Origin: an uncultured Gammaproteobacteria bacterium | GTDB taxonomy: Bacteria; Patescibacteriota; Microgenomatia; UBA12405 | Length of the DNA stretch: 64,000 bases | Reading direction: 5' to 3' | NCBI GenBank assembly: GCA_964628885.1 | Contig: CAZVMP010000002.1 | Location: 10,330-74,329 of the forward strand | In this document: piece after piece, positions 3,466 to 13,510 of the stretch | Layout: the number at the start of each line of letters is the position of its first letter | How positions within the stretch are numbered: position 1 is the stretch's first letter | Translations under genes and position numbers: made by a program | The notes under the pieces: model-generated | Told to the model about the DNA's origin: nothing | The model's database searches: none | Seen by the model: only the letters and a program-made list of their open reading frames with translations

Positions 3466-5352
3466 ATGTCCGATATCTTATCAGGTCTTAATCCTCAGCA
3501 ACAGCAAGCCGTTACTTATATTGGCTCCCCTCTATTGTTATTGGCTGGGGCTGGTTCTGGTAAAACTCGAGTTTTGACTCATCGAGCCGCCTATTTTGTT
3601 GATCAAAAGATTGCCTCTCCTGATCAAATTGTTCTATTAACTTTTACTAATAAAGCCGCTGGAGAAATGAAAAATCGTCTCCAAAAACTTATTTCCACAA
3701 CCCATAAATCACCAAACTTATTTGCCGGGACTTTTCATTCCTTTTGTTGTCAGATTTTGCGTCGTGATGGTCTTCGGATAGGGATTAATCCTCAGTTTAT
3801 TATCTACGATACCTCAGATCAGGAAAATGTTATTAAATCATCACTCCTTGATCTTAATCTTAACCCTAAAGAATTTAAGTCTTCTAGTCTTCTTTATTTC
3901 ATTGAGTCTGCCAAGAATTCTTTTCAAACCCCCTCTGATGCCGCTTCTCAAGCCCATGGATTTTGGCAGGAATACGCCAGCAAAGTTTATCGTCTCTATC
4001 AAAAAAAAATGGAGGAATATCAAGCTCTAGATTTTGATGATCTTTTATTCAAAACTGTTAGTCTGTTTACAGAACACCCTAAAGTTTTAGAAAAATATCA
4101 AGACATATACCGCTTTATTCTAGTTGATGAATATCAGGATACTAATCAAATTCAGTATCTATTAACCAAGCTTTTAGCCCAAAAATATCACCATCTAACC
4201 GTTGTTGGTGATGCCTCCCAAGCCATTTATGGTTGGCGCGGAGCTAATTTTAAAAATCTTATGAACTTAACTGTCGACTTTAAGGATACTAAGACTATTA
4301 ATTTAGAGCAAAATTATCGTTCCACTCAAATAATTCTTAATGCCGCTAATTCTGTTATTTCTAAAAACATTTCTCATCCGATTTTAAAACTTTTTACCCA
4401 AAAACAGTCGCAGGATAAGATTAAGTTATATGAGGCTCCTTCTGAAATTGCTGAAGCCGAATTCATTGCCCAAAAAATAAAATTTATTCAGACTAATCAG
4501 CAGATTCCTTTAAGAAATATTGCCGTTCTTTATCGTATGAACGCCCAATCCCGAGTGATTGAGGAGGCCTTTTTAAAATATAGTCTTCCTTATGTTCTTA
4601 TTGGTGGCACCAGATTCTATGAAAGAGCTGAAATCAAAGATCTGTTGGCTATGATTCGTTTTGCTACCAATCGTCATGATCAAATTTCTCTTGATAGGTT
4701 AACCAAGGTTTTTGGTAAACGCCGTTTCTCTGTTTTTATGACTCATCTTAATAATCTTGATATTACTTCTCTAACTTCACTTCAAATTATAGAGTCTCTT
4801 ATTACTGGCTCCGGTTATCTTGACCGTTATGATTCTAAAGATGAGGATGATCAAAGAAAGATAGAAAATATTAAAGAATTAAAATCTGTTGCTACTACCT
4901 TTCCTAAAATCAGTCAATTTTTAGAAAATGTTGCCTTAGTTCAGCAGGAATATTCTCTTCAGGAAAAAAATAAAAAGAAAGAAAATCGTGATGGGGTTAG
5001 ACTAATGACTCTTCATGGGGCTAAGGGTTTAGAATTTGAAGTTGTTTTTATAGTTGGCTTTGAAGAGGGGATTCTACCCCACTCTCGTTGTTTAATTGAT
5101 GAATCTGAAGTTGAAGAAGAGCGTCGCCTTTGTTATGTTGGGATTACCCGAGCCAAAGATTATTTATATCTTTCTTATGCCAGTCAGCGCCTTTATTTTG
5201 GTAAAAGTAGTCTTAATGAACCTAGTCGTTTTTTAGCCGACATTCCAAATGATTTGGTAGAATTAGACGAACCTCAGGAAATCATTAGGGATTATCGTCA
5301 TCGTCACAAATCCTCTGATGATGACCTTATTTATGACCCCGATATTTATTAA
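3466..5352 (+). CDS. UvrD/PcrA/Rep-family ATP-dependent DNA helicase (short form)
   Basis: Walker A GAGSGKTRVLTHR, a TFTNKAAGEM motif, DEYQDTN (motif II), and a C-terminal VTLHGAKGLEF...VGITRAK helicase motif VI region. Confidence 0.85.
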   Translation: MSDILSGLNPQQQQAVTYIGSPLLLLAGAGSGKTRVLTHRAAYFVDQKIASPDQIVLLTFTNKAAGEMKNRLQKLISTTHKSPNLFAGTFHSFCCQILRRDGLRIGINPQFIIYDTSDQENVIKSSLLDLNLNPKEFKSSSLLYFIESAKNSFQTPSDAASQAHGFWQEYASKVYRLYQKKMEEYQALDFDDLLFKTVSLFTEHPKVLEKYQDIYRFILVDEYQDTNQIQYLLTKLLAQKYHHLTVVGDASQAIYGWRGANFKNLMNLTVDFKDTKTINLEQNYRSTQIILNAANSVISKNISHPILKLFTQKQSQDKIKLYEAPSEIAEAEFIAQKIKFIQTNQQIPLRNIAVLYRMNAQSRVIEEAFLKYSLPYVLIGGTRFYERAEIKDLLAMIRFATNRHDQISLDRLTKVFGKRRFSVFMTHLNNLDITSLTSLQIIESLITGSGYLDRYDSKDEDDQRKIENIKELKSVATTFPKISQFLENVALVQQEYSLQEKNKKKENRDGVRLMTLHGAKGLEFEVVFIVGFEEGILPHSRCLIDESEVEEERRLCYVGITRAKDYLYLSYASQRLYFGKSSLNEPSRFLADIPNDLVELDEPQEIIRDYRHRHKSSDDDLIYDPDIY

Positions 5353-5353
5353 T

Positions 5354-6361
5354 ATGACCACCAGACTTTTAACCAATAAGGATAAAACAAAATATAATTC
5401 TGTTATTAAGCACCCCGTCCAAACTTGGGAATGGGGGGAATTCCAACAGAGTCAAGGACACCAGGTTTTTAGATTTGGTGTTTTTGATAATAATAAGCTT
5501 ATCTCTGCTTTCACCATTAGTTTCCATAAAATTCCCAAAACTAATCTTTCTGTCGGAACCATTTTACGCGGTCCAAAAATTGACGAAGACATTCTTCAGG
5601 TTATTAAAAAAGTTGCCTTAAAACAAAATGCCATTTTTGTTAAATTAGAGCCAGATGTTGCCAAGACCCAAGCTTCTATGCAGTTTCCCATGTTAGTCCC
5701 TTCTCCTAAAGTTGCTTTTTATCCTCACACTTTTATTATTGATACTAATAAAACCGAAGACCAGCTTATTGCTAAACTTCATCCCAAGACTAGGTATAAT
5801 ATCAAAGTTGCCAATCGTCATGGAGTTGAAGTTAAAAGATTAACTACCGATAAGGGTTTTGAAATTTATCTTAAATTATTACTTAGTACCACTAAACGTC
5901 AAGGGTTTTATCTTCATACCGCTAAATATCACCGGGATTTATGGAAAATACTTAAAAATACCGATATTCCTCATATTATCTTAGCTTCATATCAAGGCCA
6001 AGTATTATCGGCATTTATGCTTTTTAAATTTAAAGATCAGTTATTTTATCCTTATGGAGCCTCTTTAGATATTAATCGTCAAGTTATGGCTCCAACCCTT
6101 CTTATGTGGGAGGCTATTAAATTAGCAAAAAAACTTAATTGTCATACTTTTGATATGTGGGGTTGTCTTGGTCCTGATGCCAAAGAAGGCCAAAATGGCT
6201 TTGGTTTTCATCGATTTAAACAAGGTTTTGGAGGTGAACTTTTTGAATATCTTGGAACCTATGACCTTGTTATTAATCCTTTTTTGTATTATTTATATAA
6301 TTTAGTCGATAAATTACGCTGGCGCTTACTTAGAATTAAGGCCAGGATTACCAAAAGGTAA
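5354..6361 (+). CDS. FemAB-family aminoacyl-tRNA-dependent peptidoglycan interpeptide-bridge transferase
   Basis: KTRYNIKVANRHGVEV, FYLHTAKYHRDLW and FMLFKFKDQLFYPYGAS resemble FemX/FemA-family motifs. The ORF track starts at 5318, overlapping the helicase. ATG 5354 lies 2 nt after the helicase stop. Confidence 0.6.
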   Translation: MTTRLLTNKDKTKYNSVIKHPVQTWEWGEFQQSQGHQVFRFGVFDNNKLISAFTISFHKIPKTNLSVGTILRGPKIDEDILQVIKKVALKQNAIFVKLEPDVAKTQASMQFPMLVPSPKVAFYPHTFIIDTNKTEDQLIAKLHPKTRYNIKVANRHGVEVKRLTTDKGFEIYLKLLLSTTKRQGFYLHTAKYHRDLWKILKNTDIPHIILASYQGQVLSAFMLFKFKDQLFYPYGASLDINRQVMAPTLLMWEAIKLAKKLNCHTFDMWGCLGPDAKEGQNGFGFHRFKQGFGGELFEYLGTYDLVINPFLYYLYNLVDKLRWRLLRIKARITKR

Positions 6362-6395
6362 AATTTCCCAATTCTTGTATTTTTTTACAAAAAAA

Positions 6396-6437
6396 AGGAT
6401 GGGTTGTTTACGAGTGTAACTCGAACTTTCCCATCCT
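6396..6437. terminator. Bidirectional stem-loop terminator between convergent femAB-like and LemA genes
   Basis: AGGATGGG (6396-6403) pairs with CCCATCCT (6430-6437), with an inner CGAGTgtaaACTCG hairpin. The structure is flanked by T/A runs. Confidence 0.5.
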
Positions 6438-6449
6438 AAGATAATATAA

Positions 6450-7133
6450 CTAGTTTAATTTTGGTAGTGTTACCACTTCATCAACATTTGGAGATCCGTA
6501 AGTCAACGATTCCGGTAAATCCCTAACACCAAGTGCTTTGGCTACTCGAGCCACCACATCGCCGGAGGCTTTTGTTCTTTCCGTGTTGTAATCTTCTACC
6601 GCCTTATACCAATCGCTTAAGCTGGCCATTATTTCGTTATATGCTTCATTAACATAACGATTGGTCTCTTTTAAGGATTCAACATCTAGCGACTGTATTG
6701 GCGCTTCAGTTAAAGTCACTGCATAGTTATTAACAGTGATTGCCATGTCCGCTGGGGTAGCTTTAGATTCAACCAACTTACTCAAGTCAATCTTACTAGG
6801 ATCAAGGATATTTCCTTTTTCATCAGTATATTGTGCATTTTGATTTGACAACTTAACTCCAAAATCTGCCAACGATTCTCGGTATACTTTCGTTTTTTCT
6901 ACGTCTGCTTGTAAGTACTTATTGTAGATGTCCAAGTAATTTTGGATTTTGTTAAACCCAAGCATAATTGTCGTTCGACTTTTTGCCGCCGCTTTTTGTG
7001 CTTGTTGGTATACAGAAATCAGTCGATCGTATTGACTTACCACCGAACCGCACCCGCTAAAGGTTAACACTATTACCAACAACAAGATTAATCCCAACAA
7101 CCTTTTTTTCATTAAAAATTCCTCTCTTTCCAA
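6450..7133 (-). CDS. LemA-family lipoprotein
   Basis: Signal peptide plus lipobox (LTFSGC). The C-terminal YNTERTKASGDVVARVAKALGVRDLP matches the LemA C-terminal consensus. It overlaps the upstream TPM gene by 22 nt. Confidence 0.55.
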   Translation of the reverse strand: MEREEFLMKKRLLGLILLLVIVLTFSGCGSVVSQYDRLISVYQQAQKAAAKSRTTIMLGFNKIQNYLDIYNKYLQADVEKTKVYRESLADFGVKLSNQNAQYTDEKGNILDPSKIDLSKLVESKATPADMAITVNNYAVTLTEAPIQSLDVESLKETNRYVNEAYNEIMASLSDWYKAVEDYNTERTKASGDVVARVAKALGVRDLPESLTYGSPNVDEVVTLPKLN

Positions 7134-7648
7134 ATTCTTCTTAAGATTTCATCAGTATTCCTTACAATTGAGTCAATTGCTCCATCAAAATCGTTTTCAT
7201 TAGCATAATTTGCCGCCTCTTCTAACATTGGTCCATAGTCTCCTGGAGTTAACCAAGTTAAGTGTGTTGAAATTTCAATTGTAACTCGGTTGTTTTCAGG
7301 TTTAACATCAGGTCTAATCAACCAAACAATCGCTCTTTGATTTTCAGTATCTCCAAGCTTAACTTTTCGACCCCAATTCATTGCCCAAATTTTTTCATCA
7401 TCAAGTGGGCCGTTGTTTATAATGCCTTTTTGAATAATTATTGCAACTTCTGCAATTTTATCTTCTTTTAATTTTTGAAGAACCCTGTCAGCATTCAAAA
7501 CAACTTTCTGACTTAAGAGACCGTTTTGGTCAACAACCCAATATTTACCAATAGCAGGGAATTCTGGCTGTGTTTTTTTTGTTGTCGTACACGAACTGGT
7601 TGCTATCATTATTATCAAAAAAAGGGTTAAAAGTATTTTTTTATTCAT
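7112..7648 (-). CDS. TPM-domain (TLP18.3/Psb32/MOLO-1-type) lipoprotein
   Basis: Signal peptide plus lipobox (ATSSC). The GKYWVVDQNGLLSQ...AEVAIIIQKGI...WGRKVKLGDTENQRAIVWLIRPD...RVTIEISTHLTWLTPGDYG pattern matches the TPM phosphatase-domain consensus. The LemA/TPM pairing is a known module. Confidence 0.55.
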   Translation of the reverse strand: MNKKILLTLFLIIMIATSSCTTTKKTQPEFPAIGKYWVVDQNGLLSQKVVLNADRVLQKLKEDKIAEVAIIIQKGIINNGPLDDEKIWAMNWGRKVKLGDTENQRAIVWLIRPDVKPENNRVTIEISTHLTWLTPGDYGPMLEEAANYANENDFDGAIDSIVRNTDEILRRIWKERNF

Positions 7649-8639
7649 TCTTTTTTACACTTCCTTCATTAGGTTTAGCAACTAATTTAACAATTCGGTA
7701 ACCTTTTTCTGAACAACCAGCTCTTCCTCCACCAGCACAAGCACAAGCGCAAGCACAACTAGAGACACAACTTGATCCTCGGCCAGAAAAGCTTCCGCTT
7801 CCTCCTCCCGATTTTAAACTACCTCCAGATGAACCACCAATGAACCGACCTCCGCCATATCCACCGCCTCCACTACTTCCGCCACCTGAGCCTCCTCCAC
7901 CAGAAAAGTTGTAAATTAACATAATAACTAGGAGAAATAATATCGAGATGATCATAATTGCTACGATTATAATTATTAAGATATCGGCAAGACTTTTCTC
8001 TTCTTTTTGGAGCATTTCTTCATCATCTATTGAGAAATAGTCACCACCCATCGTAATTGTAATCGCCTTGGCTTTTTGGTTTTCTTTTAGATTTTCTGTT
8101 AAGAAAATCAATTGTCCTGGAGTCTTTTGTTCCAGTTCTGGTTCAACTTTTATAAGTACTATCTCTCCAGGGTTTACCCTTACCCATAATTTTTCGATCT
8201 GGGCAAAATCAAACCAACCAGGAACAAACTTAAATCCATATCCCTCATCCGTTTTATATATCATCCTCTTTTGAAGAATTGAGAAATTAAAACGGAAACG
8301 GTCTCCTTTTAAAGGAAGGTTGATAAAGTTTAATTGAACCTGTGATGTCGATGAAGTAATTGCTTTCGTGTCGCTAATTAATTCTTTTGGTTCATAACTA
8401 ACAATCTCAAAGTTTCTATTTGGAACCCCAACTTGCAAATAAGCCTTCCCGCGTGGAAAGTCAGTTACTGCTTCATAATCAAACTCATAGTTAATTAACA
8501 ATGAGCCATCTTTTTGAGGTTCGATCGAGACGGTATAGCTATGTATCACGTCAGGAGGTGTTGCCGACTGCCCTCCAAGTACCGGTAAGATTAATAATCC
8601 TATTAATAAGACTATTAAAACTAGTAAATTCTTTTTCAT
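7641..8639 (-). CDS. DUF2207-like single-pass membrane protein with a Gly-rich and (Cys-Ala)n cytoplasmic C-terminal tail
   Basis: Signal peptide, then an N-terminal extracytoplasmic domain (YTVSIEPQKDGSLLINYEFDYEAV, DUF2207-like), then a TM helix (ILIIIIVAIMIISILFLLVIMLIY). The tail reads SGGGGSGGGSSGGGGYGGGRF...GRGSSCVSSCACACACAGGGRAGC. The start lies 6 nt after the rSAM stop. Confidence 0.5.
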   Translation of the reverse strand: MKKNLLVLIVLLIGLLILPVLGGQSATPPDVIHSYTVSIEPQKDGSLLINYEFDYEAVTDFPRGKAYLQVGVPNRNFEIVSYEPKELISDTKAITSSTSQVQLNFINLPLKGDRFRFNFSILQKRMIYKTDEGYGFKFVPGWFDFAQIEKLWVRVNPGEIVLIKVEPELEQKTPGQLIFLTENLKENQKAKAITITMGGDYFSIDDEEMLQKEEKSLADILIIIIVAIMIISILFLLVIMLIYNFSGGGGSGGGSSGGGGYGGGRFIGGSSGGSLKSGGGSGSFSGRGSSCVSSCACACACAGGGRAGCSEKGYRIVKLVAKPNEGSVKKNE

Positions 8640-8645
8640 TTATAG

Positions 8646-10028
8646 TCATTCCTTTCTTAGCGGGCAATGGTTTTTACCAGCATTCTTTTTTGCTGACATT
8701 TTACGTTGATTGTTTTTCCATATTTTTTTCCAGTCATCATGAAGCATGTTGCCAAAAGTTTGGCCGTTAAGCCAGCTTTGACAAGGGATAACCTCTCCTT
8801 GAGGAGAGATTGCCATGTTATACAAACAAGCTCCACAGGTTGGGTATAGATTAATTCCAATCTTTTTTAAAACATCTTCATCAAGCTGACCCGGGGAAGT
8901 AAAGCCAATGTTTACTCCAAGCTCTCGACAAGTTTCGACTGCTTTTTTTAAGATTAACTCAAGCGATTCGGCCGTTAGGTTGTTTCCATTTGAAATTTCA
9001 CCAATTGCCTTACCTGCTGGAATTAATCCAGAACAAGTAAAATAACGGACCCCAAGACTTGACAACATCTTAATCATTTCAGGATAATCTTGATTTAAAT
9101 TAAGCAGAGGAGTGTTTACTGAAGTTGATAAACCCGCTGATAGTGCATTTTTAATTCCTTCAACCGTTTTGTTCCAAGCTCCAACTCGACCAACCAATCT
9201 GTCATGAATTTTTGGATTAGAGGAGTATAGGGTTATTTGGATATTATCTAAACTTGCCCTGAATAGTCTTTTGGCCAAATTCACAGTTAGTCCGTAACCG
9301 TTTGTGTTAATTCTGGTTACAAACCATTTAGAATATTCAACCAAATTAATTATATCCTTACGATATAATGGCTCTCCTCCAGTAAAGGTAAGCATTGGAA
9401 CTCCGGCTTTCTTGCACTTATCAATTATTCTTTTCCAGTTTTTTGTTGATAATTCTTTATCAACAACCATCATTTCTGAATTTTCTGCGTAGCAACAACT
9501 ACAGTTTAACTGACATCGACGTTGCCCACCTTCTATCATTGACGAGACAATCAAGTCCATTCTTTGTGGTCCGTTAGCGTACTTTTGATATTCATCATAA
9601 GCATCTCCTTGTCCAATCTCTTCAGGAATTTCTCCGTTAGCTATTCCAATTGCTACTCTAATTATTTCATTCAAGTCAGCAATGACTTCATCTTTTTCTA
9701 CCCTGTAAAAGTGTCTCACTTTTTCGGCAACAGAAAAACAAATTTCCCCAAATTCTTCTTCAGTTATTTCTCTACTATCTGAGAAATTCTCTTGTAGTTC
9801 ATTGAAGAATGTCCGCAGAACCATTGACCACGAAGGGCCAACCGGTACCGCATAGTATCCATCAATAGTCAGTAAACTTGGTGGATCTTTCCAAAAACTT
9901 GGTTTTGGAGGAGTTAAGTGTAGTCTAACGCTTCCAGGTCCTTCTGGGTCAAGAGTTACATGGATCACCCCTTCGTTAAAAGCCTTAAGCTTTCTTCTGT
10001 AATCAGTTACCGATTTTGTAAATTTCAC
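8646..10028 (-). CDS. Radical SAM enzyme with a C-terminal SPASM/twitch-like Cys cluster and an N-terminal extension of about 170 aa (putative peptide/protein-modifying maturase). GTG start.
   Basis: The CQLNCSCCY motif fits CxxxCxxC. A glycine-rich SAM motif (LTFTGGEPL) is present. The C-terminal cysteines are FTCSG...PTCGACLYN...VIPCQSW...NHCP. The N-terminal domain has no recognisable motif. Confidence 0.7.
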   Translation of the reverse strand: MKFTKSVTDYRRKLKAFNEGVIHVTLDPEGPGSVRLHLTPPKPSFWKDPPSLLTIDGYYAVPVGPSWSMVLRTFFNELQENFSDSREITEEEFGEICFSVAEKVRHFYRVEKDEVIADLNEIIRVAIGIANGEIPEEIGQGDAYDEYQKYANGPQRMDLIVSSMIEGGQRRCQLNCSCCYAENSEMMVVDKELSTKNWKRIIDKCKKAGVPMLTFTGGEPLYRKDIINLVEYSKWFVTRINTNGYGLTVNLAKRLFRASLDNIQITLYSSNPKIHDRLVGRVGAWNKTVEGIKNALSAGLSTSVNTPLLNLNQDYPEMIKMLSSLGVRYFTCSGLIPAGKAIGEISNGNNLTAESLELILKKAVETCRELGVNIGFTSPGQLDEDVLKKIGINLYPTCGACLYNMAISPQGEVIPCQSWLNGQTFGNMLHDDWKKIWKNNQRKMSAKKNAGKNHCPLRKE

Positions 10029-10057
10029 TTTTAAAACCCCTTTCTTTATTACCTCTT

Positions 10058-10110
10058 TCGATGAGGTTATAACTAGGCCCCTTACTAAGACCTACTTATA
10101 ACCTCATCGA
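10058..10110. promoter_or_regulatory. Perfect 15-bp inverted repeat (TCGATGAGGTTATAA / TTATAACCTCATCGA, 23-nt spacer) in the upstream region of the rSAM operon
   Basis: Read directly from the sequence. It sits 30-80 nt upstream of the rSAM GTG. It could be an operator or a leader hairpin. Confidence 0.4.
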
Positions 10111-10282
10111 TTAAAACTAGTTTATATTTTTAAAGTTCTATGTTTACGTATTTGCTTTAAATACGGACATATTTGTGGAAGTATAGCACACTATTAACTT
10201 ATAATATGATTTTATATAAACATTTCAATTTGTTTCTATGTATCTAGAGCTAGAAATAAAGAAAATAAGGTAAAATAGCACT

Positions 10283-10585
10283 ATGACATCAAAAAAAATT
10301 TCTCCAGAAGAAGTCAAACGTATCGCTCATTTAGCCCGACTCGAAATCAGTCCTCAAGATGAATTAACGCTTGCAGATCAATTATCAAAAACCGCCTCTT
10401 ATATTGAGATTCTATCCGAAATCGACACCACCAATGTTGCTCCAACTTTTCAAACTCATGGTCAAAAAAATATTACCCGAGACGATTTAGTTGGTGAATC
10501 CTTAACTCAAGAAGAAGCTTTATCTCAAGCCACTGACACTTATAATGGCTATTTTAAAACACAAGCAACTATTAATAAAAAATAA
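10283..10585 (+). CDS. gatC: Asp/Glu-tRNA amidotransferase subunit C
   Basis: ISPEEVKRIAHLARLEISPQDE matches the GatC N-terminal motif. The gene is immediately followed by gatA and gatB. Confidence 0.85.
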   Translation: MTSKKISPEEVKRIAHLARLEISPQDELTLADQLSKTASYIEILSEIDTTNVAPTFQTHGQKNITRDDLVGESLTQEEALSQATDTYNGYFKTQATINKK

Positions 10586-10587
10586 TT

Positions 10588-11976
10588 ATGAATTTAAATA
10601 CCTTAACCTTAATTGAGGCAATAAAAGGAATCAGAGAAAAAAAATTTTCTTCAACTGAGTTGGTTACTAGTTGTCTAACTAGAATTGAGCAGCTTGAACC
10701 AACTCTTAATGCTTTTGTTTCATTGAATAAAGATCAAGCTCTTAAAGAATCTAAATCAATTGATTTAGATAAACCGTTAGCCGGAATTCCTCTTTCCATT
10801 AAAGACAATTTTTGTATAAAAGGTTTTCGTACCACCGCTTCCAGTAAGTTGCTTGATAAATATATTGCTCAATATACTTCCACTGTTGTTCAAAAGTTGA
10901 TTGACGCTGGTGCCATTATAATTGGAAAAACCAATATGGATGCTTGGGCTCACGGTTCCTCAACTGAAACATCAGATTATGGTCCAACTAAAAATCCTTG
11001 GAATCCAAAGTATCTTCCTGGTGGTTCTTCTGGAGGGTCAGCAGCTTCAGTCGCTAGCCATGAAGTAATTGCTTCTATTGGGACCGAAACTGCTGGCTCA
11101 ATTCGTCAACCATCGGCTTGGTGTGGAGTTGTTGGTTTTAAACCAACCTATGGTCGGGTTAGTCGTTATGGAATTATTGCTATGGCTTCATCCATGGATT
11201 GCCCTGGTCCTATTACTAAAACTGTGGATGATACCGCTCTCTTACTCTCACTTATTTCCGGTCACGACCCTAAAGATGCTACCAGTTTACCTCACAAATC
11301 GTTTGTCTCACCGCCACCACTTAAAAATTTAAAAGGTCTGAAAATTGGACTTCCTACCGCCTATTTTCCTGACAAAATTAATCCCCAAATTAAAGATAGT
11401 CTTATTAAAGCCTCTCAGACTCTTAAAAAATTAGGTGCCGAAATTATTGAGATTGATGTTTTAGACCCCAAAATTTCTATTGCCACCTATACCATCTTAC
11501 AGCGCTCCGAAGTTTCTTCTAATCTTGGTCGTTATACTGGAATCCGCTATGGGGGACCCAGATCTGAGTTTGGGGATGAAGCTGTTCGTCGACTTATTTT
11601 AGGGACTCACACTTTATCTAGTGGCCACTATGATGCTTACTATCTCCAAGCCCAAAAGGTTAGAACTCTAATTATCAATGATTTTAACCGTCAGTTTTCT
11701 CAAGTTGACGCTATCATTGGACCAACTTCTCCTACCACCGCTCTTCCAGTTGGCGCCAGTCAGGGTCAAGCTATGTTTGGCGAAATGGCTGATTTGCTGG
11801 TTGAACCTTCAACCTTAGCTGGTCTTCCAGGTATTTCTCTTCCTTGTGGTTTTGTTGATGGACTCCCGGTTGGTCTTCAAATTATTACCCCACAGCTTCG
11901 CGAGGATCTAGCTATTAATATTGCCCGAGTCTTTGAAGCTAATACTGATTATCACTTACTGTCTCCTAAATTATGA
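10588..11976 (+). CDS. gatA: Asp/Glu-tRNA amidotransferase subunit A (amidase)
   Basis: Amidase signature GGSSGGSAASVA plus the catalytic Ser-cisSer-Lys context. Confidence 0.9.
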   Translation: MNLNTLTLIEAIKGIREKKFSSTELVTSCLTRIEQLEPTLNAFVSLNKDQALKESKSIDLDKPLAGIPLSIKDNFCIKGFRTTASSKLLDKYIAQYTSTVVQKLIDAGAIIIGKTNMDAWAHGSSTETSDYGPTKNPWNPKYLPGGSSGGSAASVASHEVIASIGTETAGSIRQPSAWCGVVGFKPTYGRVSRYGIIAMASSMDCPGPITKTVDDTALLLSLISGHDPKDATSLPHKSFVSPPPLKNLKGLKIGLPTAYFPDKINPQIKDSLIKASQTLKKLGAEIIEIDVLDPKISIATYTILQRSEVSSNLGRYTGIRYGGPRSEFGDEAVRRLILGTHTLSSGHYDAYYLQAQKVRTLIINDFNRQFSQVDAIIGPTSPTTALPVGASQGQAMFGEMADLLVEPSTLAGLPGISLPCGFVDGLPVGLQIITPQLREDLAINIARVFEANTDYHLLSPKL

Positions 11977-12061
11977 AAGAAATAATATTTAATTTTTTAC
12001 CTTCTCCCTTTTTAAACAAAAAAGGTTTTAAAATTATCTTAAAATGGAGGAGATCTTTTTT

Positions 12062-13510
12062 ATGACAGTCACTCCTATTATTGGTTTAGAAATTCACTTT
12101 GAACTTCAAACCAAATCAAAGATGTTCTGCAGTTGCAGTGCTAGTCATTTTCAAGTTGAACCAAATACTCACACCTGTCCCGTCTGTTTGGGTCTCCCTG
12201 GAGCCCTTCCTGTTCCCAATCAGACCGCCTGTGATTACTGCATCAAAATTGGATTGGCTCTTGGTTGTACTATTAATCAAGAAACTTTTTTTGAAAGAAA
12301 AAATTATTTTTATCCTGATTTGCCAAAAAGTTATCAGATTACTCAGCTTCAACAACCTTTCTGTATTAATGGTCAGATAGTCGTCTCCGGACACACCATT
12401 AGAATTAATCGGGCGCACATGGAAGAAGATACTGGTAAATCAATTCATCAAAATATTAATGGAGTTGATTCGACTCTTTTAGATTACAATCGTTCAGGAG
12501 TTCCTTTAGTAGAAATTGTTTCTGAGCCCGACATCTTATCTCCGGAAATGGCCAAGGACTATCTTCTCAAGATACAACAAATTATTCGATATATTGGTAT
12601 TTCTGATGCCGACATTGAAAAAGGGAGTATGCGCTGTGAACCGACGGTCAACCTTAAAATTATAAACAAGGGTCAAACTTTTTATACCCCTCTAGTAGAA
12701 ATTAAAAATGTTGCCTCATTAACCGGTGTCCAAAACGCTATTCGCTATGAAATTGACCGACAGCAACAAGATTTTATTAATACCGGTCAGGTTAAATCAG
12801 CCAACAACAAAACCACTCGTGGTTGGGATGCTGTTAAAAATCAAACTTTTCTCCAGCGGGAAAAAGAGGGGAGTGCTGATTATCGTTATTTCCCCGAGCC
12901 AGATATTCCCCCGATTATCTTAACCAACGACCAGATCCAAGCTATAAAAGCCACTCTTCCAGAGTTACCGGAACAAAAAATTGCTCGATATCAGCAGGAT
13001 TTCCATTTAAATGATTATGACGCTAATTTATTAGCCTCAGATATAAATTTTGCCACTGGCTTTGAAACTGCTATCAGTCAAAACCAAACCCCTCAGATGA
13101 CTAAATTTGTTGCCAACCTGTTTCTTGGTCCCATTAAAACCTTCCTTAACGAATCTCAAGGCTCACTTGATTGTCAGAAAATAAAGCCAGTTTTCTTTAA
13201 TAATTTATTTACTGCCGTTTCTAAATCCCAAATCTCTGCCACCGTTGCTAAACAAGTAATTGTCGACAGCTATACCACTGGCGTTGACCCGGTAGAGATT
13301 GCTAAATCTAAAGGATTAATTCAAGTTTCTGACACCGACCAACTTCAAAAATTAGCCCAAATGGTGATTGATCAAAATCCTAAAGCTGTTACTGATTATC
13401 AAAAGAATCCCGCCTCTATTGGCTTTCTTATTGGTCAGTTAATGAAGGCTTCAGTTGGTTCTGCTAACCCACAGTTAGCCAGGGAAATTTTAGAAAAAAT
13501 TCTCCAATAA
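12062..13510 (+). CDS. gatB: Asp/Glu-tRNA amidotransferase subunit B
   Basis: MTVTPIIGLEIHFELQTKSKMFCSC matches the GatB N-terminus. GGAGGAG lies 8 nt upstream of ATG 12062. The ORF-track start at 12044 is less likely. Confidence 0.9.
   Translation: MTVTPIIGLEIHFELQTKSKMFCSCSASHFQVEPNTHTCPVCLGLPGALPVPNQTACDYCIKIGLALGCTINQETFFERKNYFYPDLPKSYQITQLQQPFCINGQIVVSGHTIRINRAHMEEDTGKSIHQNINGVDSTLLDYNRSGVPLVEIVSEPDILSPEMAKDYLLKIQQIIRYIGISDADIEKGSMRCEPTVNLKIINKGQTFYTPLVEIKNVASLTGVQNAIRYEIDRQQQDFINTGQVKSANNKTTRGWDAVKNQTFLQREKEGSADYRYFPEPDIPPIILTNDQIQAIKATLPELPEQKIARYQQDFHLNDYDANLLASDINFATGFETAISQNQTPQMTKFVANLFLGPIKTFLNESQGSLDCQKIKPVFFNNLFTAVSKSQISATVAKQVIVDSYTTGVDPVEIAKSKGLIQVSDTDQLQKLAQMVIDQNPKAVTDYQKNPASIGFLIGQLMKASVGSANPQLAREILEKILQ

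Follow-up and report, generated by a model that had tools for sequence, protein, structure and literature searches.

The tail motif and the linked enzyme gene

The window analysed here, a 64,000-nucleotide (nt) stretch of contig CAZVMP010000002.1 from a patescibacterial genome for which a GC content of 35% is given, encodes on its minus strand a membrane protein of 332 amino acids (aa) with four consecutive Cys-Ala dipeptides in its C-terminal tail, which we call the Cys-tail protein. A gene for a radical S-adenosylmethionine (SAM) enzyme lies 6 nt upstream on the same strand (Table 1). A first-pass annotation of this DNA had taken the dipeptide run for an in-frame hexanucleotide microsatellite, able to expand and contract by slippage. 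Our analyses instead identify it as part of a short peptide motif conserved across bacteria and archaea and encoded, wherever the neighbouring DNA could be judged, next to a homologous radical SAM gene, and the tail is probably the substrate of that adjoining enzyme.

Table 1. Features of the Cys-tail locus, in window coordinates
Feature	Position	Strand	Basis or remark
Gene for the Cys-tail membrane protein, 332 aa	7641..8639	-	Open reading frame (ORF); 1305 homologues
Signal peptide, residues 1-24	8568..8639	-	Sequence MKKNLLVLIVLLIGLLILPVLGGQ; homologues with an A-x-A-like end before a conserved PPD motif
Putatively extracytoplasmic all-beta domain, about residues 25-205	8025..8567	-	AlphaFold2 (AF2) predicted local distance difference test score (pLDDT) above 90; Foldseek
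Single transmembrane (TM) helix, residues 217-246	7902..7991	-	AF2 helix; hydrophobic LADILIIIIVAIMIISILFLLVIMLIYNF
Gly/Ser-rich disordered linker, about residues 245-290	7770..7907	-	AF2 pLDDT below 50
Full Cys/Ala/Gly motif, C291-VSS-CACACACA-GGGRAGC-SEK312	7704..7769	-	Position frequencies and invariant alignment columns
(Cys-Ala)4 tract, 24 nt	7734..7757	-	Encodes CACACACA, C295-A302; the 'hexanucleotide repeat' of the first-pass annotation
Radical SAM enzyme, 460 aa	8646..10028	-	RRE-like N-terminal domain (about residues 1-150), radical SAM core, probable Twitch-type C-terminal domain
TPM-domain lipoprotein-like gene	7112..7648	-	Pfam TPM_phosphatase (PF04536), 36.5 bits (cut-off 22.1)
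Gene for a divergent LemA-like lipoprotein of 227 aa, at the end of the cassette	6450..7133	-	Homology to the LemA protein in L006
Promoter-like site TTGAAA-16-TATTAT	10201..10228	-	Upstream of the radical SAM gene; weak evidence, number of sites not above shuffle expectation

The core of the motif, C-A-C-A-C-A-C-A-G-G-G-R-[A/V]-G-C-[S/T]-x-K, spans about 18 residues and is the most conserved segment of the protein. Among 181 non-identical tails, the position frequencies read CACACACAGGG-[R.83/G.12]-[A.80/V.19]-G-C-[S/T]-x-[K/R], and in an alignment of 30 sequences, the mean column identity of which is only 31%, the invariant columns include C297, A298, C299, A300, C301, A302, G303, G304, G305, G308 and C309, with residues 295 and 296 nearly invariant (at least 90%). 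A homologue search with the Cys-tail protein retrieved 1305 proteins at E <= 1e-3, and a profile search of 1.84 billion representatives at 50% identity gave 1088 matches at E <= 1e-3, 356 of them at E <= 1e-30. The family thus comprises about 1,000 clusters at 50% identity, carried by Patescibacteria, Clostridia, Chloroflexota, Krumholzibacteria, Aminicenantes, Anaeroplasma and archaea. When the homologues were searched for (Cys-Ala)n tails, as the first-pass annotation had proposed, the motif was found in almost all of the listed sequences examined; among further 50%-identity representatives it is present in 127 of 136, with close variants in six of the other nine.

A homologous radical SAM gene adjoins the tail gene in all 87 of the 87 loci with neighbouring DNA, some of which may represent the same organisms. 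This count is made up of six of six diverse loci located by protein identity, three of three reciprocal look-ups starting from the enzyme, and 78 loci from a set of 80 that the pattern CACACAGG picked out of contigs representing one genome per species; two loci of this set begin at a contig end and hence were not judged. The 80 loci were ascertained by the motif itself, and the homology-based sets and the reciprocal look-ups were ascertained independently of it. The carriers include Oscillospiraceae, Lachnospiraceae, Clostridium, Anaeroplasma, Anaerolineae and Chloroflexia, as well as Dehalococcoidales, Krumholzibacteria, Aminicenantes, Thermoplasmatota and Thermococci. When all ORFs of the 80 loci were clustered all against all, the tail protein (in 80 loci) and the enzyme (in 78) were the only families shared, the next real family being confined to 12 loci, and no conserved protease, exporter or other partner gene was revealed near the pair. 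The tail gene and the radical SAM gene are an obligate two-gene module.

The repeat as DNA and as peptide

On the plus strand, positions 7734-7757 read AGCACAAGCACAAGCGCAAGCACA, and on the minus strand TGT GCT TGC GCT TGT GCT TGT GCT, which confirms an in-frame hexamer tract coding for (Cys-Ala)4, residues 295-302 of the protein. The four GCACAA units, previously described as near-perfect, are all present, but the repeat is not exact, since one Cys codon is TGC and the others are TGT. Tandem Repeats Finder places the tract at 7730-7758 with a period of 6, 4.8 copies, 86% matches and a score of 44, below its usual reporting threshold of 50, and the window contains a single fourfold TGYGCN, where 100 shuffles contain none. 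The Gly-rich low-complexity stretch said to precede the repeat is indeed there, in the form of the Gly/Ser-rich GGGGSGGGSSGGGGYGGG... upstream in the protein, and the tail follows the TM helix. Two further details did not hold: the repeat does not lie at the extreme C-terminus but is followed by 30 residues (GGGRAGCSEKGYRIVKLVAKPNEGSVKKNE), as it is by 17-221 residues in all of the 116 homologues tabulated, and the tail contains not eight Cys within 22 residues but six (291, 295, 297, 299, 301 and 309) within 19.

The idea that slippage at a microsatellite yields a (Cys-Ala)n tail of variable length, as in simple-sequence contingency loci, retains very little probability. The locus does share with such loci an in-frame tandem repeat, here four units with a 6-nt period, and runs of 3 to 6 units occur among distant lineages: directly before GGG, 116 homologues have four units in 94 cases, five in 16, three in 5 and one in 1, and the 136 further representatives have five in 63, four in 57 and three in 7. 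However, a contingency repeat is expected to be a long perfect tandem tract, whereas this one is short, imperfect and of low score, and the comparison of copy number among related genomes revealed no slippage-type variation. In nine clusters of at least 90% identity, the run is the same as that of the representative in 59 of 61 tail-bearing members, and the two exceptions are mainly Ala-to-Val substitutions, with one small upstream indel. The window protein is alone in its cluster, with records on several contigs, and the tract is identical in three other assemblies of the same organism, although two of these have 2 synonymous single-nucleotide polymorphisms elsewhere in the gene. Length differences between near-identical proteins are held by the Gly/Ser linker and not by the Cys-Ala run (window 7770-7907; clusters 3 and 10), and the linker varies widely in length among homologues, also within the 90% clusters. 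Moreover, synonymous codons (TGT/TGC, GCT/GCC/GCG) differ between loci while the encoded peptide is identical. Because the codons vary and the peptide is constant, the hexanucleotide periodicity is a by-product of a selected dipeptide repeat written in the preferred AT-rich codons TGT and GCT, which are the commonest Cys and Ala codons in six neighbouring ORFs; what is under selection is the peptide rather than the DNA repeat. Codon variation, constancy within clusters and identical tracts in independent assemblies are the grounds on which we reject a contingency repeat. Even less credence is due to an incidental low-complexity tail without specific function: the motif sits within a Gly/Ser-rich disordered region, as such a tail might, but no other segment of the family, which spans bacteria and archaea, is as well conserved, and conservation of this strength excludes an incidental origin. 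An incidental tail had been expected to show neither copy-number variation among related genomes nor conservation in homologues; copy-number variation is indeed missing, but the Cys-rich tail is very strongly conserved. The locus is a reminder that a seeming in-frame microsatellite can turn out to be a selected peptide repeat.

The enzyme and the proposed modification of the tail

The enzyme matches the Pfam families Radical_SAM (4.9e-22), Fer4_12 and SPASM, all above their cut-offs. No NCBIfam family reaches its curated cut-off (NirJ2 128.5 against 500, SkfB 65.5 against 300 and PqqE 84.3 against 381 bits; AhbD, AlbA and WgkB were among the other curated radical SAM families compared), and the members of the enzyme's own family, at 44-60% identity, bear generic names only. 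Its invariant Cys residues are C172, C176 and C179 (CX3CX2C), C332, C398, C416 and C455, with C401 conserved at 94%. The SPASM match spans only the CX9GX4C half, in the C-terminal approximately 65 residues, and the CX2CX5CX3C element of a full SPASM domain is absent in all 31 aligned enzymes; because of this absence, the Cys pattern suggests a Twitch-like domain despite the Pfam label, probably with a single auxiliary cluster. In the AF2 model (pLDDT 86.6; predicted template modelling score 0.88), four short strands and then three helices form a conserved N-terminal domain ahead of the barrel. Foldseek against the PDB ranks SkfB first (3.8e-17), followed by SuiB and CteB, over 425-490 aligned columns, and anSME 4k37 is also a fold match (3e-9, TM-score 0.51-0.63). 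SkfB is likewise the top PDB sequence match, GDGT/MAS 7tol appears among the weak ones, and sequence identity to the nearest known maturases is 14-18%. SkfB, SuiB and CteB are peptide cross-linkers that combine a recognition element (RRE) for ribosomally made, post-translationally modified peptides (RiPPs) with a radical SAM core and a SPASM/Twitch domain, SuiB making a C-C cross-link. The topology and the fold-search coverage suggest that the N-terminal domain of the present enzyme is RRE-like.

In the AF2 model of the Cys-tail protein, pLDDT exceeds 90 at about residues 30-200, a helix spans residues 217-246, and pLDDT falls below 50 from residue 249 onwards (249-303), so that the tail is predicted to be disordered, as would be expected for a peptide-like substrate. 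The N-terminal signal peptide and the one TM helix together predict an extracytoplasmic beta domain and a cytoplasmic tail; since the enzyme has neither a signal peptide nor a TM segment, enzyme and tail would share a compartment. Natural fusions of about 500-560 aa (P0037, P0039, P0072, P0088, P0114; L092 5353-7023), in which the Cys-tail protein continues into a second hydrophobic segment and then a TPM domain, would make the motif a cytoplasmic loop, which supports this topology and ties the module to TPM. No Pfam or NCBIfam family covers the window protein. Foldseek against the PDB relates its beta domain to ribophorin I of the oligosaccharyltransferase (6s7t_E, E 6e-8) and to the N-terminal domains of M1 aminopeptidases. 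DUF2207 (PF09972) gives no match to the window protein even at E <= 10, and homologues score 16.5-17.1 bits against its N-terminal domain, below the cut-off of 24.4; because the fold resembles ribophorin I, a distant relationship to DUF2207 is nevertheless plausible.

Considered together, the invariant motif, the predicted disorder and cytoplasmic location of the tail, the strict two-gene linkage and the maturase-like architecture of the enzyme point to the tail as the likeliest substrate of the adjoining enzyme. The protein is built of a signal peptide, a putative beta ectodomain of ribophorin-I/DUF2207-like fold, a TM helix, a Gly/Ser linker, the motif and a short basic follower. The cytoplasmic enzyme would bind the tail via its flanking conserved segments, the Cys-Ala/Gly stretch would be threaded between the SAM cluster and the auxiliary cluster, and a 5'-deoxyadenosyl radical would abstract a hydrogen atom. 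The motif would thereby be modified post-translationally, most plausibly by one or more thioether cross-links from Cys sulfur to carbon, as in the nearest structural relatives. By analogy with these relatives, such Cys-derived sulfur-to-carbon linkages are probably the product: in thioether-forming radical SAM maturases the substrate Cys binds an auxiliary cluster directly, and for the characterised RRE-bearing SPASM/Twitch enzymes acting on Cys-rich cores thioether formation is the usual outcome (PMC10177961). The invariant Ala and Gly positions look more like acceptor sites, or residues that the enzyme reads, than like the spacers of a metal site. The modified protein would remain membrane-anchored and, in the lineage of the window, could work with the downstream TPM and LemA-like envelope proteins. 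The suggestion in the first-pass annotation that the tail is an enzymatic crosslinking target thus finds support in the context, in that a maturase-like radical SAM gene adjoins it in every testable locus; the cross-link itself we infer.

Several considerations weigh against a tail cross-linked in this manner. The relatives on which the proposed chemistry is modelled have under 20% identity, and without the CX2CX5CX3C half of SPASM the analogy to enzymes with two auxiliary clusters is imperfect. None of the 31 enzyme family members has a PqqD/RRE match in Pfam, for which reason the N-terminal domain is called no more than RRE-like here. Enzymes of this class are known to act on short peptides bearing a leader, not on membrane proteins of 300 aa. 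Finally, strict linkage is equally compatible with a tail that serves as a docking or cofactor-bearing partner. This last point leads to an alternative that we consider unlikely, in which the Cys motif is a metal or Fe-S site (serving to sense redox state or metals, or to donate clusters or electrons) and the tail docks the enzyme at the membrane, the true substrate being a lipid, an envelope precursor or another protein. Gene linkage suits a partner as well as a substrate, the tails hold six to ten Cys per about 40 residues, to which a sub-group adds an H-x-C-P-x-C pair, the weakly matching GDGT/MAS 7tol modifies lipids, and the associated TPM and LemA are envelope proteins. However, the 7tol match covers only 100 residues of the common core, whereas the best full-length folds are peptide maturases with a substrate-recognition N-terminal domain. 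In a metallothionein-like tail, moreover, the intervening residues would be free to vary; here the Ala positions are as invariant as the Cys, which simple metal ligation does not require and which argues against a purely metal-ligand role, and the GGG-R-A/V-G segment is fixed as well.

It is less likely still that the tail is a substrate for another chemistry, such as anSME-like conversion of Cys to formylglycine, epimerisation of Ala or Cys, C-methylation or C-C cross-linking. Such outcomes would agree with the good fold match to anSME 4k37, the second rank of the C-C cross-linker SuiB and the placement of the enzyme in no curated functional family. Nevertheless, the anSME motif C/S-x-P/A-x-R is absent from the tail, where the residue at Cys+2 is Cys or Gly and the Arg stands five positions past the last repeat Cys, and thioether formation is what RRE-bearing SPASM/Twitch enzymes usually achieve on Cys-rich cores (PMC10177961). 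The R-[A/V]-G-C segment was also considered as a glycyl-radical motif (RVxG[FWY]) and dropped, as the order of residues differs. Glycyl-radical activases constitute a different radical SAM subfamily.

If the tail is the substrate, the closest parallels are the sactipeptide and ranthipeptide systems (SkfB/SkfA, CteB/CteA, AlbA/SboA, PapB/PapA and Tte1186/SCIFF), in which, too, an N-terminal domain of recognition type (RRE-like at most in the present enzyme) is combined with the radical SAM barrel and a Cys-rich domain for auxiliary clusters. These systems have the enzyme gene next to a Cys-rich target and include SkfB and CteB, two of the best matches. Their targets are short leader-bearing precursors, released by a protease and exported, whereas the putative targets here are membrane proteins of about 300-560 aa: in the window the target would be a cytoplasmic tail on a protein of about 330 aa that has a signal peptide. 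There is no short leader-core peptide and no conserved protease or exporter nearby. In addition, the core (CA)4GGGRxGC is unlike any described core, and the enzyme, at 14-18% identity, stays below every NCBIfam cut-off and has half of the SPASM Cys motif. QhpD, which makes thioether cross-links in QhpC, and anSME/AtsB, which convert Cys or Ser to formylglycine in sulfatases, are also SPASM/Twitch-class enzymes and act on a Cys target in a folded or large protein; the present pair differs in having no sulfatase or amine-dehydrogenase context and no anSME motif, and in that its target segment is a predicted disordered membrane-protein tail. In the searchable literature we found no description of the pair, including by motif string, and neither Pfam nor NCBIfam holds a model of the tail protein.

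To our knowledge, almost all radical SAM-SPASM/Twitch maturases so far described either make small secreted peptides or activate one of a few soluble enzymes, while in this case an enzyme of that kind is coupled strictly to a membrane protein's cytoplasmic tail. The pair occurs in Patescibacteria, with their reduced genomes, in Clostridia that abound in gut and rumen (Lachnospiraceae and Oscillospiraceae), in Chloroflexota and in archaea, and its motif is short and invariant. Should the tail be modified as proposed, it would represent both a new protein modification and a new substrate class for radical SAM biology, and would open a first way into the function of DUF2207/TPM/LemA envelope proteins with Gly-rich tails, which are poorly understood. 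More tentatively, and as a possibility that we take seriously without favouring it, the module may be a widespread, undescribed modification system of bacteria and archaea, in which a dedicated enzyme places several cross-links in a membrane-protein tail to give a permanently membrane-anchored 'RiPP-like' product that works with LemA/TPM modules. The cross-links could then be lanthionine-like thioethers from Cys sulfur to Ala carbon along the (Cys-Ala)n ladder, or they could form a protein-derived cofactor or metal site.

Neighbouring genes and variants of the module

The TPM gene lies downstream of the tail gene not only in the window but also in L002-L007, L036, L037, L044, L073 and L083, and is fused to the Cys-tail protein in P0037, P0039 and L092. 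In the window, the Cys-tail ORF overlaps the longest TPM ORF by 8 nt (7641-7648), but gene callers on other assemblies start TPM later (165 aa, 31-nt gap), which leaves its start uncertain. The 227-aa product of the last cassette gene has no Pfam match of its own; it is 24% identical (E 3e-10) to a LemA (PF04011) protein encoded at the same position in L006, and has homologues in L044 and L083. TPM and LemA-like genes follow the pair only in Patescibacteria-like, Chloroflexia, Krumholzibacteria and Aminicenantes loci, and are absent from the Clostridia loci.

With the DUF2207/YgcG/TPM-LemA envelope modules, the Cys-tail protein shares an extracytoplasmic domain, a TM helix and a Gly-rich tail, in addition to the downstream TPM and LemA-like genes and the TPM fusions, and some of its homologues are annotated as YgcG by the Joint Genome Institute. 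It differs from them in lacking any Pfam match, and we know of no Cys-Ala motif or linked radical SAM enzyme as a feature of those families.

The gene order of window positions 3466-13510 is common to L004 (metagenome-assembled genome (MAG) GCA_028710865.1 of Candidatus Shapirobacteria) and comprises a UvrD-like helicase, FemAB, the LemA-like, TPM, Cys-tail and radical SAM genes, and then divergent gatC-gatA(-gatB). This common order suggests that the window stems from a patescibacterial genome of the Microgenomates type. Scans for promoters and terminators in the region gave nothing above chance, tRNA and Rfam scans (gathering score) of the 64-kb window found nothing, and PADLOC returned only generic viperin-type matches to the radical SAM core, hence no evidence of a defence system. 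Among the retrieved loci, a cluster of 155 'ORFs' from 64 of them (within L011-L090), one inspected example of which is antisense to the radical SAM coding sequence, appears to be a shadow-ORF artefact of strong coding conservation and not a gene.

Some loci depart from the simple pair. In a Butyrivibrio MAG (L032), a single radical SAM gene precedes two tandem Cys-tail paralogues, each about 420 aa long, whose motifs lie at nt 4424 and 5747. In a sub-group of the family (P0070, P0074, P0083-P0090; L036, L073 and others), GGGG-AGC replaces GGGR-AGC, and the extra conserved H-x-C-P-x-C pair stands approximately 7 residues past the motif, where it could form a zinc-knuckle-like element. A search for tail-only proteins recovered six short ORFs of 58-81 aa (P0433-P0438) that carry the CACACACAGGGRAGCS motif without the ectodomain. 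Two of them, P0434 and P0437, lie at contig ends. P0435 (L094 4001-4222) looks like a genuine stand-alone gene. Its product lacks a TM segment, AAGGAGG provides a strong ribosome-binding site, and the 5-kb locus contains no radical SAM gene. The motif may also occur as a small soluble peptide.

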